Source: a virus
DNA length: 64,000 nucleotides
Virus record (IMG/VR): IMGVR_UViG_3300030419_008098
Span: 1 to 64,000 of that record
Reading direction: 5' to 3' (one strand)
Shown piece after piece: positions 5,697-8,259 of the stretch. The position numbers and the translations under genes are program-made. The notes beneath the pieces are model-generated. The model was not told the origin of the DNA. It saw only the letters and a list, made by a program, of their open reading frames with translations, and searched no databases. The first letter of the stretch is position 1. Every line of letters starts with the position of its first letter.

Positions 5697-5837
5697 GTTT
5701 CGCTCTACTTCACATTAGGAGGGGAATAAAAGAGGTATAAAACATTATACATTAGTATTTAAGTTTCGCTCTACTTAATTAAAAATGGTCGGGACGGATT
5801 TCGCTCTGAAGAACTGGATGCGAACCAGATTTCGCTC
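5697..5837 (-). CRISPR. Distal guide array: one degenerate 36-nt repeat plus short-handle units
   Basis: RTTTCGCTCT at 5697, 5763, 5798, 5829; 5697-5724 matches the 36-nt repeat at 27/28 positions and 5697 to 5763 is exactly 36+30 nt. Confidence 0.75.
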
Positions 5838-5928
5838 TAATAAGAAAGAAGATGCCTATTAATATAATCTCAAGGCTTTGAGTTCCCCCTGCGAACTAGG
5901 GAAGAACATTAAAATTTTTAAAGAACTG
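5829..5928 (-). ncRNA. Scaffold RNA copy A (omegaRNA/tracr-like)
   Basis: Hairpin 5882-5907, stem 5854-5876, ends in handle GAGCGAAAT, boxA-like 5917-5928; homologous to three other copies. Confidence 0.75.
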
Positions 5929-5948
5929 TTAGTTAAGGGCGTCCCTGC

Positions 5949-6006
5949 GTTTCGCTCTACTTCTGGATGATGGGGTTTCACTCACCTTTACAAGCAAGGC
6001 GGGCTA
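5949..6006 (-). CRISPR. Short-handle guide units downstream of scaffold B
   Basis: GTTTCGCTCTACTTC at 5949, GTTTCACTC at 5975, GTTTAGCTC at 6007. Confidence 0.6.
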
Positions 6007-6109
6007 GTTTAGCTCCCCTCCGTGAAGGAGATGCGTATTGATGTAATCGCAACGCTTTTAATTCCCCCTGCGAATTAGGGAAGAATATTTATAAAATTTT
6101 AAAGAACAG
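6007..6109 (-). ncRNA. Scaffold RNA copy B
   Basis: Hairpin 6061-6086, stem 6033-6055, boxA-like 6098-6109. Confidence 0.75.
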
Positions 6110-6134
6110 TTATTTAAGGGCGTCCCTGCTTACG

Positions 6135-6368
6135 GTTTCGCTCTACTTCAAATTCAGAGGAGTGCAAAACGAAACGAGTTTTTCGCCTTGCTTGTTTCAG
6201 GTTTCGCTCTACTTCAAATTCAGAGGAGTGCAAAACAAAGAAGTGGCAGATTGGCGGCATCTTTTAGTTTCGCTCTACTTCAAATTAGGAGGGGTGCGAA
6301 ACTATTACAGCCGAATTAACTGACCGACTAACGTTTCGCTCTACTTCAAATTAGGAGGGGTGCGAAAC
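6135..6368 (-). CRISPR. CRISPR array, 4 x 36-nt repeats, 3 x 30-nt spacers
   Basis: Repeats at 6135 and 6201 (GTTTCGCTCTACTTCAAATTCAGAGGAGTGCAAAAC), 6267 and 6333 (GTTTCGCTCTACTTCAAATTAGGAGGGGTGCGAAAC); strand inferred from promoter, nuclease and boxA orientation. Confidence 0.92.
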
Positions 6369-6431
6369 CGTCAGGGCTTTCATGCCGCTAAAGGGGTTGA
6401 ATTTCGCTCACCAAAACCCGTGGGAACTCTA

Positions 6432-6530
6432 ATTTCACTCCCCTCGGTGAAGGAGATGTCTTTTGATGCAATCTCAAGACTTTTAGTTCCCCCTGCGAAC
6501 TAGGGAAGAACTTTAAACTGTAAAGAACAT
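6432..6530 (-). ncRNA. Scaffold RNA copy C, starting at nuclease stop codon
   Basis: Hairpin 6486-6511, stem 6458-6480, handle at 6432, extra short handle at 6401, boxA-like 6519-6530. Confidence 0.75.
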
Positions 6531-7906
6531 TAACCGAAAACCGCTTTTTTTATGTTTTGGGCGGCATTTTGGTCACGCTCATGGTGTGTTCCACATTCGG
6601 GACACTCCCACTCGCGGTCAGTTAAGGACAATTCACTATTCCTGTAACCACAGCAAGAACAGTCTTGAGTGGTATAAGCAGGGGGAACTGCCTCAACTAC
6701 ATTACCCCTAAGCTCAGACTTATATGTTAATTGATTTTTAATATCATATATTCCTGCTTCAAGGGATTTTTTATTAATTGCTTGTTTTTGTTTATTAAAA
6801 AGTTTTTTATCTTTTTGGGTATTACCAACCATCTCTTTTACTTTATAATCTTCAAAAGCAATGCCATCGTAATTATTTGTTATTTGATGGGTGAAATTAT
6901 GGATGGCATCTTTGTGTTGGCGTGTTTGTTGGCGCTTAAGTTTACCCAATCTCTTGAGAAGTTTACGCCAATTATTTGAGCCGCGCTCCTTCAAAGACAG
7001 TTGTTGTTGAACTCGCAGAATACGATCCTCAAGTTTTTTATCCTTGGGGAAATTATATTTATTGTTTTGGTCGTCTATTACATTATCCTTAATCCCGAAA
7101 TCCAACCCAATAGTTTTAGTTGGCTTTTCCACAACAGGAGGTATTTTATTTGGGTCAAGAGCAATAGTAATACAGAGGTAAAACTCATTACCCTCTTTTG
7201 AGAGTGAAACCGTTTTCATTTTACCCCCTTCGGGGATGGGGCGGTGCATCACAAGCCTCATCGGCTCTTTTATCCCCGCTATTTTATTAAGTCGGCTGTG
7301 GGTTGGGCGCTCTTCATTTATAGTGATTGAATACTCGCCTTCTATTGGTTCACCCTCTGCATCTACAGTATTGGAGGTACTGATAAAACCCCCATCACAA
7401 AAATGAGTGGGATGAACAGGGAGGCGATTACCGCTTTCTTCTGCAAAATATTTTACACCTTTACCTTTAGTATACCAGCTAGACTTAACTTTGGGGGCAA
7501 CATGGTTTAGACACCTAGCTGACACCTTATTTAAAATCTCGTACCCCCAACATTCGCCCTCATCGTTCATGTAGCGGTTTGCTTTGAGGGATTTGTTTAT
7601 TATCCTTGTTTCTCCCGTTTTAAGTTTCTTTACTTTCTTATATTTGAACTCGGGCAAATTATCCAAGCCCTCTTTTTTGGTGCGCCATTGGGAGATTAAT
7701 TTATTCATGGCGGTGAAGTTTGGTGCGCCCTTGGCACTCTGAAACTCGGGGTAGTTCTCTATATCCCCCGCAATCCTGACGAATTCATTCACTACAATCT
7801 GAACAGCCTTCATTGCCTCGGTAACTTGGGCATACCACTCAGTTTCCTCAATCTTTTGACTACGAGTGAGGGGGAGGAGTCTATATTTATAAGTTATAGT
7901 TTTCAT
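6530..7906 (-). CDS. tnpB: TnpB/Cas12f-like RNA-guided RuvC endonuclease
   Basis: N-terminal TYKYRLLP; RuvC-I IGLDFG, RuvC-II IAFED, Zn finger YTTQDCSCCG..WECPECG, RuvC-III RDQNAAQNI; catalytic D-E-D all present. Confidence 0.9.
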   Translation of the reverse strand: MKTITYKYRLLPLTRSQKIEETEWYAQVTEAMKAVQIVVNEFVRIAGDIENYPEFQSAKGAPNFTAMNKLISQWRTKKEGLDNLPEFKYKKVKKLKTGETRIINKSLKANRYMNDEGECWGYEILNKVSARCLNHVAPKVKSSWYTKGKGVKYFAEESGNRLPVHPTHFCDGGFISTSNTVDAEGEPIEGEYSITINEERPTHSRLNKIAGIKEPMRLVMHRPIPEGGKMKTVSLSKEGNEFYLCITIALDPNKIPPVVEKPTKTIGLDFGIKDNVIDDQNNKYNFPKDKKLEDRILRVQQQLSLKERGSNNWRKLLKRLGKLKRQQTRQHKDAIHNFTHQITNNYDGIAFEDYKVKEMVGNTQKDKKLFNKQKQAINKKSLEAGIYDIKNQLTYKSELRGNVVEAVPPAYTTQDCSCCGYRNSELSLTDREWECPECGTHHERDQNAAQNIKKAVFG

Positions 7907-7963
7907 TTTTAAAAGTCCATGTCGAATGCCTCGGGTAGTCTTGAGGTCTCCGTGGAAGGTAGA

Positions 7964-8137
7964 ATTTCGCTCTTTCCTTAAGTTAAAGTTCAGCCTTGCC
8001 TAGTTTCGCTATTAAAGTGTGGCGTCATCGTACATATTTCGCTCTGTTAAAGCAACAATTGGATCATGTTTCGCAACCCAAGAGCTTAGCTCAGCTGGTG
8101 TTTCGCCTTGGAAGTAATACTCTCCACCTCGTTTCAC
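7964..8137 (-). CRISPR. Non-canonical mini-repeat guide array upstream of nuclease
   Basis: RTTTCRC at 7964, 8003, 8036, 8068, 8100, 8131 (spacing 39,33,32,32,31) with unique intervening sequences; motif equals the end of the 36-nt repeat. Confidence 0.75.
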
Positions 8138-8224
8138 TTTAGAAAAGATGCTCTTTGATGCAATCTCGGAGCTTTGGATTCCCCCTGCGAACTAGGGAAG
8201 AATTTTAAATTATTTAAAGAACTG
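8131..8224 (-). ncRNA. Scaffold RNA copy D, first element after the promoter
   Basis: Hairpin 8178-8203, stem 8150-8172, boxA-like 8213-8224. Confidence 0.75.
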
Positions 8225-8230
8225 TAATAC

Positions 8231-8259
8231 ATTATCTCATAAACCGTGTTAAAAGTCAA
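8231..8259 (-). promoter_or_regulatory. Sigma70-type promoter driving scaffold D / mini-array / nuclease
   Basis: TTGACT-17 bp-GATAAT with TG extended -10. Confidence 0.75.

Follow-up and report, generated by a model that had tools for sequence, protein, structure and literature searches.

What kind of system is encoded where a TnpB-like nuclease gene of a marine phage is accompanied by four copies of a structured RNA and by both full and strongly shortened repeat units, and which of these units could act as guides? The locus concerned lies on the minus strand (8259 to approximately 5675) of the window, i.e., the whole stretch of 64,000 nucleotides (nt) analysed here, which corresponds to positions 1-64,000 of the 96.7-kb linear IMG/VR record IMGVR_UViG_3300030419_008098 (judged 69% complete). 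It consists of a promoter, four scaffolds (D, C, B, and A), the nuclease gene, an array of short palindromic repeats that are clustered and regularly interspaced (CRISPR), and short-handle units, the handle (GCGAAAY) being the last 7 nt of the repeat. An initial annotation of this DNA had arranged these parts in the order promoter, scaffold D and its units, nuclease, scaffold C, CRISPR array, scaffold B, and scaffold A, and had counted 19 handle sites; the order was reproduced exactly, and splitting the minus strand from 8300 to 5640 after each handle returned the same 19 sites (6+2+4+3+4). Probably, the phage carries here a domesticated, TnpB-type nuclease system that is RNA-guided, acts on DNA, and belongs among the transposon-CRISPR intermediates (TranC-like, type V-U-like).

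The nuclease gene (6530-7906, minus strand) encodes a protein of 458 amino acids (aa), predicted to be a TnpB-fold RNA-guided nuclease. Its open reading frame (ORF) matches the OrfB_IS605 and Cas12f1-like_TNB families (Pfam PF01385, 50.1 bits, and PF07282, 79.1 bits, both above cut-off) as well as the NCBIfam model guided_TnpB (191 bits against a cut-off of 100), and the TnpB-family score is limited to residues 200-455. Residues D269, E352, and D445 align with the catalytic motifs of ISDra2 TnpB (GVDVGIKD, IIGTEHLK, and HDRDENAA), and its zinc finger is matched in the alignment by C416, C419, C435, and C438; the three catalytic and four zinc-finger residues are invariant in 17 family members, in agreement with the intact D-E-D triad and zinc finger of the initial annotation. 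The protein therefore belongs to the TnpB superfamily, with RuvC and zinc-ribbon TNB domains above cut-off, the D-E-D triad, and the CxxC...CxxC motif. Matches to the N-terminal 200 residues are confined to 16 protein clusters among 5.8 billion, and none of these bears the name of a Cas protein. An AlphaFold model based on an alignment of 17 relatives (mean predicted local distance difference test score 84.6) has its best structural matches in the ternary complexes of ISDra2 and ISFba1 TnpB (E 2e-15, target template modelling score 0.69-0.75), followed by weaker matches to Cas12p, Cas12f, Fanzor2, and LaTranC. Considering the family models, the TnpB-like fold, and the aligned, invariant RuvC triad and zinc finger, the protein appears to be an intact nuclease with a minimal TnpB architecture.

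The scaffolds are structured elements of approximately 95 nt, each ending in a fused handle. On the minus strand, scaffold D occupies 8131-8222 (handle GTGAAAC at 8131-8137), scaffold C 6432-6528 (GTGAAAT), scaffold B 6007-6107 (GCTAAAC, with the loop variant AATTCGC), and scaffold A 5829-5926 (GCGAAAT). Scaffold C begins 2 nt past the stop codon of the nuclease gene, which is the position of the omega-RNA in TnpB loci. Nine scaffolds from five loci share a common fold with 20 base pairs (bp), comprising hairpin 1 (9 bp with the 7-nt loop AGUUCGC), hairpin 2 (4 plus 3 bp), and a variable hairpin 3 immediately 5′ of the handle. In this set, 96.6% of the cells of the shared pairs are paired, compared to 48-60% when the partners are slid by 1-3 columns, and none of 500 shuffles equaled the pairing or covariation score of the real alignment. 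Within the window alone, the four copies already show double changes in three of the four outer hairpin 2 pairs and in the closing pair of hairpin 1, and stem 2 reads GUCUU/AAGAC, GCGU/ACGC, GCCU/AGGC, and GCUC/GAGC. Such compensatory double changes indicate that the four copies diverged under selection for structure and are not the product of a fresh duplication. The guide-like stretch GCAGGGACGCCCTTAA precedes both scaffold A (22 nt, 5927-5948) and scaffold B (27 nt, 6108-6134), which indicates that these two cassettes (5829-5948 and 6007-6134) arose by duplication of a guide plus scaffold and that their hairpin 2 has since diverged through compensatory changes. No Rfam family matched the locus. 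In addition, the 3′ arm of hairpin 1 (5881-5892 and 6485-6496) is complementary over 12 nt to the nuclease coding sequence at 6678-6689 (AVPPAY codons), approximately the level expected by chance in 3 kb.

The proposed link between the scaffolds and the guide units is a short complementarity. The loop of hairpin 1 (GUUCGC) can base-pair with the repeat's 3′ end (GCGAAAC), and the loop and the last 7 nt of the array's repeats are complementary in all 30 scaffolds compared, the handle having one extra A. Four co-varying loop/handle types (GTTCGC/GCGAAAC, GTTTAG/CTAAAAC, GTTTGC/GCAAAAC, and GTTGAG/CTCAAAC) are set apart by seven compensatory substitutions. By inspection, pairing is kept in 18 of the 19 handles of the window, as Watson-Crick or G-U pairs. 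Two relatives contain two loop types within a single locus (L004 at 3296, 3664, and 5434; L075 at 3215, 3645, and 5376), where each scaffold heads repeats or handles of its own type, and for this reason one nuclease seems, from sequence, to accept two orthogonal scaffold-guide sets. It has been reported that the trans-activating CRISPR RNAs (tracrRNAs) of Cas12 enzymes characteristically pair with the repeat 3′ end (AAAC:UUUG), forming a pseudoknot (Cas12p preprint); by analogy, the loop-handle pairing is the counterpart of this tracrRNA/repeat-3′-end pseudoknot. A conserved scaffold with four co-varying types would thus behave like a tracrRNA, i.e., a separate RNA that pairs with the repeat. 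A second contact may be provided by the scaffold segment CAUCUCCUUC, which can pair with GAAGUAGAG, a sequence that in the full repeat adjoins the handle on its 5′ side, at seven of eight positions by inspection; the folding of the scaffold-repeat duplex was ambiguous, scaffold B alone being clearly above shuffles (-25.6 kcal/mol, 2 of 200 shuffles as good).

Full-length relatives of the nuclease (35-89% identity) were found in metagenomes only, mostly marine, and several of them are viral contigs. The initial annotation had suggested searching related phages for the same architecture, and this search bore it out: a profile of the four window scaffolds detected a scaffold in every family locus (one to three copies, always on the strand of the gene) and had no match in approximately 130 loci of other TnpBs. 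An array with a period of 58-74 nt lies beside the gene in 18 of the 20 family loci (the other two are short contigs), an arrangement of RuvC effector and array that is conserved as in type V and TranC loci. Nearly all family arrays have 36-nt repeats and adjoin the gene, and four loci (L073, L074, L075, and L077) have a scaffold plus array on both sides, upstream and downstream of it. Wherever a relative has enough flanking sequence, the nuclease gene occupies the same position in the phage; the record contains a single copy of it, with syntenic phage genes as neighbors. The annotation had reported neither tnpA nor cas1 nearby, and in fact no Y1 TnpA (PF01797) was found in the 96.7-kb record or in the L005 record, and no Cas1 in the two viral records searched whole, that of the window included. 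With no Y1 TnpA and a single copy, the locus does not resemble a mobile IS200/IS605 element of the OMEGA type (obligate mobile element-guided activity), serine recombinases not having been searched separately; nor does it resemble a single omega-RNA with one guide, as it has three scaffolds beyond scaffold C, 15 further handle sites, and a CRISPR array. Homologs in ordinary IS605 elements without scaffolds and arrays, which the annotation had regarded as evidence against its proposal, are not the case in this family, since the relatives carry scaffolds and arrays in synteny and neither a Y1 transposase nor Cas1 occurs in the two records. Judging from this genomic context, the nuclease is a domesticated, non-mobile TnpB-type enzyme.

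The guide units fall into three classes, namely scaffold-fused, short-handle, and full-repeat units, as the annotation had described for a domesticated TnpB with several scaffolds, and covariation in relatives supports the loop-handle pairing through which short-handle guides could be loaded. All of them are on the minus strand. Mini-array D (7964-8130) consists of five head-to-tail units of 31, 32, 32, 33, and 39 nt, each with 22-32 unique nt followed by GCGAAAY, and a sixth guide-like stretch (7963 to approximately 7940) enters the 5′ untranslated region (UTR) of the nuclease gene. Past scaffold C lie the short-handle unit C1 (31 nt, 6401-6431) and the CRISPR array (6135-6400), which has four 36-nt repeats (two variants with four differing positions) and spacers of 32, 30, 30, and 30 nt, giving its full repeats a 66-nt period. 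Scaffold B is followed by units B1 (32 nt, handle GTGAAAC) and B2 (26 nt, with 15 nt of the repeat kept) at 5949-6006, and scaffold A by A1 (31 nt), A2 (35 nt), and a 66-nt unit with a degenerate full repeat at 5697-5732 (together 5697-5828). The minus strand of the whole record contains the motif GAGCGAAAY at 12 sites, every one of them within the locus, and the plus strand contains none (calculated chance expectation approximately 0.7 per strand); scaffolds and repeats are likewise confined to the locus.

Upstream of these elements, a sigma-70-like promoter (8231-8259, minus strand; TTGACT, 17 nt, TG-GATAAT) matches the consensus at 10 of 12 positions and has a TG extension, as had been annotated. 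The only other promoter-like site on this strand belongs to the next gene (5671-5644) and follows the unit end. At the unit end (5673-5696, minus strand), a short hairpin-capable stretch with a run of seven T is kept in L071, which is the closest relative with flanks (85% identity). L071 has the same promoter directly ahead of the gene, approximately 12 nt before the start codon (L071:560-620), and lacks scaffold D and the mini-array, which in the window (7907-8259) fill approximately 290 nt in between. Being placed between promoter and gene, scaffold D and its mini-array would form the 5′ UTR of the nuclease mRNA; as L071 shows that a locus without array D is viable, this array must have been either gained or retained. 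L071 shares unit A2 and the terminal stretch with the window and almost no other spacer.

For single-unit transcription, RNA processing, binding, cleavage, targets, and mini-guide use, we infer the following scheme. One promoter would probably give rise to a transcript of approximately 2.6 kb that contains scaffold D, the mini-array, the nuclease mRNA, scaffold C, the CRISPR array, and then scaffolds B and A, each followed by its units. The nuclease would bind a scaffold, two of whose hairpins are conserved, and the scaffold would act as a tracrRNA or as the 5′ body of an omega-RNA. A guide module would then dock through pairing of its handle with the 7-nt loop of hairpin 1 (GUUCGC), creating a pseudoknot next to the guide as in the guide RNAs of TnpB and Cas12. 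A second helix just 5′ of the handle could be supplied in cis in scaffold-fused guides, by the repeat's own hairpin, or in trans with CAUCUCCUUC. The 20-25 nt past the handle would guide the RuvC nuclease to DNA, most likely that of rival phages or of the host. Under this scheme, short-handle units would be repeats cut down to the pseudoknot strand that are still used as guides, a reading towards which we lean slightly on the sequence evidence. It is held more tentatively that the nuclease loads guides with a handle of only 7-10 nt, by a 6-bp pseudoknot on a reusable multi-copy scaffold, so that one guide is encoded per 31-33 nt.

Several observations weigh against this scheme or parts of it. 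The 5′ end of the repeat (GTTTCGC) is the exact complement of its own 3′ end and co-varies with the handle, and the full repeat folds as a closed hairpin. Because the two ends are complementary, covariation alone fits pairing of the handle with the scaffold loop, with the repeat 5′ end, or with both in turn. A 6-bp pseudoknot by itself would be a weak tether in trans. The promoter is a consensus match only, and the putative terminator is a weak call because it was not listed by a terminator scan and its fold is no better than shuffles. No RNA run is among the public sequencing runs listed for the stretch. No protospacer was found for any guide, and thus no target-adjacent or protospacer-adjacent motif (TAM/PAM) could be derived from targets: among GenBank phages there was none above chance for arrays A-C or D (E up to 10); among viral contigs there were no exact 22-mer matches for spacers S1, S2, and S3 or mini-guide D2, and a repeat 18-mer and a scaffold 21-mer had none either; no guide matched the phage's own genome or the loci of relatives, and no spacer of a relative matched the window phage. 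The remaining points of this kind concern the short units themselves. Retention of the repeat is graded, from 7 to 15 nt, unit B2 has room for only 11 unique nt, and spacers of full units vary irregularly from 2 to 41 nt across the family; given that no adaptation module is present, such irregular arrays (approximately 40% truncated units and varied spacers) fit decay.

These last features are what would be expected if only the full 36-nt repeats and the guides fused to the four scaffolds were functional and the short units were unused, eroded repeats, which is a real possibility that we nevertheless judge to be the less probable one. The short units do look, by their sequence, like 36-nt repeats reduced to varying degrees; truncated units are found family-wide (41 of 105, lengths clustering at 25-39 nt), they often lie at distal array ends, and no Cas1 is known from the records searched. 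Accordingly, of the initial annotation's claim that three stages are visible at once (scaffold fused to a guide, scaffold serving minimal-handle guides, and full CRISPR repeats), the anatomy is as described but the evolutionary series is not supported. Against erosion alone stand, however, the regularity of the units in the window (7 of the 10 short units measure 31-33 nt) and the fact that exactly the 7 nt of the pseudoknot strand are always retained. Further contrary evidence comes from relatives whose scaffolds serve short units only. In L004/L005, a GTTCGC-type scaffold heads nothing but short-handle units (GCGGAAC, GTGAAAC, and GCGAAAC), and GTTGAG-type scaffolds in the same locus head full CTCAAAC repeats, so the short-handle type matches the adjacent scaffold type in a two-type locus. 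This short-unit-only scaffold retains its stem through the compensatory change CCCU/AGGG to CCCA/UGGG, and the scaffold of L006, which also heads short units only, has kept its stems as well. Furthermore, an array composed of short units only, array D, stands ahead of the gene in the window where L071 does without it, and unit A2, unlike most other spacers, is common to the window and L071. As a separate observation, the most distant relatives (L088:1485-2337 and L089:856-1835; 32-41% identity) contain long arrays in which full, half, and bare-handle repeats are mixed, and their scaffold has the loop AUUCGA and an extra inserted hairpin.

A regulatory or decoy function of the scaffold and short-unit RNAs, which might for instance titrate or autoregulate the nuclease via its 5′ UTR or mimic host repeats, is improbable. 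There is precedent for regulatory RNAs resembling CRISPR repeats and for repeat decoys in phages, and scaffold D with its units would indeed form the nuclease 5′ UTR if the single promoter is real, but matches of the guides to the promoter and gene of the locus itself do not exceed 12 nt, the unique inserts vary between close relatives in a spacer-like manner, and the scaffold precedes ordinary arrays in all relatives. Even less credible, and largely refuted, is the view that stacked right ends of IS200/IS605 elements left omega-RNA genes through repeated insertions and that the supposed guides are flanking DNA, which would agree with the omega-RNA position of scaffold C and with the best protein scores being to TnpB models but not with the absence of TnpA in the record, the single gene copy and the confinement of scaffolds to the locus, the syntenic position in related phages, the regular 36/30 arrays of nearly all relatives, and a loop-handle covariation that is tied to arrays.

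Some individual guides resemble other sequences. Mini-guide D2 (8075-8099, minus strand) is antisense to a transfer RNA (tRNA)-like acceptor plus D-arm (GCTTAGCTCAGCTGGT). Its 20-mer has one exact match in 185,579 genomes, in a Saprospiraceae metagenome-assembled genome, where approximately one is expected by chance; the match (L151:143-162) lies within a tRNA-like fragment that is not called by ARAGORN. With up to three mismatches, D2 matched 5 of 301 Bacteroidota genomes compared to 4 control matches, which indicates no host or target. Guides A1 (5806-5828) and A2 (5773-5797) resemble fragments of a tRNA T-arm or 3′ end. A core of 12 nt is common to spacer S4 and mini-guide B1, in which it runs in opposite directions (5990-6001 and 6184-6195; estimated chance expectation among the guides approximately 0.03), and the two may, judging from this core, aim at the two strands of related targets.

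The locus is surrounded by phage genes for replication and transcription, including those for a clamp loader, a sigma factor, a DnaE-like polymerase, a ribonucleotide reductase, and a Lon-like protease. No cultured phage in GenBank is close at the DNA level, and the phage DNA polymerase has at most approximately 34% identity to that of any cultured phage. The public runs containing the window stretch are marine metagenomes, and contigs of a second study contain identical pieces of arrays A, C, and D, so that an assembly artefact does not account for the locus; array variants are also seen among such contigs. The gene order in L004 and L075 is sigma factor, HTH-HNH endonuclease gene (HTH, helix-turn-helix), array, and nuclease, and inspection of the upstream reading frame in L071 placed an HNH gene directly upstream of the nuclease. 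This HTH-HNH gene (L004:2533-3225, L075:2510-3142, and L071:1-590), situated between the sigma factor and the array or nuclease, could encode a homing endonuclease or serve the system as an accessory gene; at this position, two small ORFs (8266-8439 and 8411-8602) are all that the window contains. The phage also encodes a transfer-messenger RNA (42847-43213, minus strand; tag peptide AATSVLLTQIG), whose ends match no guide of the locus.

If short-handle units are used, they would represent a minimal natural guide module for a TnpB-type enzyme, composed of the pseudoknot strand and the guide. This would bear on how an omega-RNA became split into tracrRNA and CRISPR RNA (crRNA) and on how, in the absence of Cas1-Cas2, arrays can still exist and undergo change, and it would offer a template for very dense multiplex guide arrays in miniature genome editors. 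Guides spaced at 31-33 nt would take up half the space of a CRISPR unit and would be missed by repeat finders, and the reduction of a 36-nt repeat to a bare handle would be visible within one operon. With two of them occurring together in single loci, the four co-varying types suggest that orthogonal scaffold-guide pairs are available ready-made, and the two-type relatives would then provide naturally orthogonal pairs for one enzyme. The family also adds a small, unannotated group of marine phage nucleases, whose likely roles are inter-phage conflict and host takeover. If the short units are only decayed repeats, the locus would still be a clear phage-borne example of a transposon-CRISPR intermediate, of ordinary interest.

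How does this system compare with those already known? TranC systems, as described, combine a TnpB-like nuclease with a CRISPR array and a split tracrRNA (Jin et al., Cell 2025, as reported via PMC13565253 and bioRxiv 10.64898/2026.03.27.714800). They resemble the present locus in having a nuclease of TnpB size and fold, a split between scaffold and crRNA, and no cas1 or cas2, and one clade (the phage-borne CauTranC9) is found in a Caudoviricetes genome; a phage-borne clade with a 414-aa TranC has 38-bp repeats, and repeats of 32-38 bp were reported for TranC clades (bioRxiv 10.64898/2026.03.27.714800). The comparison is with published descriptions and places the family in no numbered clade, the match to LaTranC being weak (E 1e-11, RuvC half). 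Unlike TranC, the present locus has four scaffold copies in the same orientation, each heading its own array, arrays flank the gene on both sides in relatives of the window, and many repeats are reduced to 7-15 nt. The TnpB of IS200/IS605 (ISDra2; PDB 8H1J, 8EXA, and 8BF8) is the best match in sequence and fold, with the same catalytic and zinc motifs, a scaffold at the 3′ end of the gene with a fused 3′ guide, and a pseudoknot strand just 5′ of the guide. It differs from the phage system, in which no TnpA was found and there are no transposon ends, and which is characterized by a single copy at a fixed phage locus, a family-specific N-terminal region of 200 aa, CRISPR arrays, and extra scaffolds.

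Cas12f (type V-F, Cas14) and the V-U/V-U* systems (PMC10691335) share a miniature RuvC effector, a tracrRNA plus array, the lack of adaptation genes, and an independent descent from TnpB. The PADLOC models for Cas12f and Cas12u4 match the RuvC half of the nuclease (E ~1e-42), whereas its scores fall well below the NCBIfam cut-offs for Cas12f2 (50.8 bits against 450) and C2c8 (78.2 against 350), and solved Cas12f chains match the RuvC part only (E 1e-8 or weaker). In contrast to Cas12f, the nuclease is without an expanded REC/WED domain and its fold is nearer to TnpB. Forty V-U* groups are known as further CRISPR-linked branches of TnpB (PMC10691335), with which the family was compared by description; their arrays lie mostly downstream of the gene (PMC10691335), whereas those of the window and its relatives are also found upstream.

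In Cas12k systems, truncated repeat-spacer units work as guides for tRNA attachment sites (bioRxiv 10.1101/2021.02.06.429022). Of the repeat, such a guide retains just the part that pairs with the tracrRNA, its spacer is short, it stands beside a normal array, and its targets are tRNA genes; here, one guide (D2) is antisense to a tRNA-like D-arm. However, Cas12k is nuclease-dead, serves Tn7 transposition, and has one truncated unit per element, whereas the phage locus has up to five units head to tail, an intact nuclease triad, and a shorter handle, and no transposase was seen among the neighbors scanned (tnsBCQ were not searched by model). Fusions of half repeats to tracrRNAs have also been described, as have duplicated arrays of omega-RNAs (PMC10691335). 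In the Cas12f-derived TnpBs associated with RpoE, fusion of a half repeat to the tracrRNA yields an omega-RNA-like molecule, and the whole scaffold plus guide is duplicated; these proteins are nuclease-dead regulators with a whole scaffold per guide, and arrays of handle-only units are not described for them (PMC10691335).

Taken together, the initial annotation's proposal of a candidate new RNA-guided system is not supported for the base system, which is of an already described kind (TranC/V-U*-like, described in 2023-2026), as TranC and V-U* systems already combine a tracrRNA with an array and truncated units are known from Cas12k. A full-text search of a literature collection returned no description of arrays whose repeat is cut to a pseudoknot strand of 7-10 nt, of four scaffolds per operon, or of two pairing types for one nuclease. 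The minimal-handle arrays, the four scaffolds, and the two pairing types in single relatives therefore seem to be previously undescribed features of this otherwise familiar group of transposon-CRISPR intermediates.

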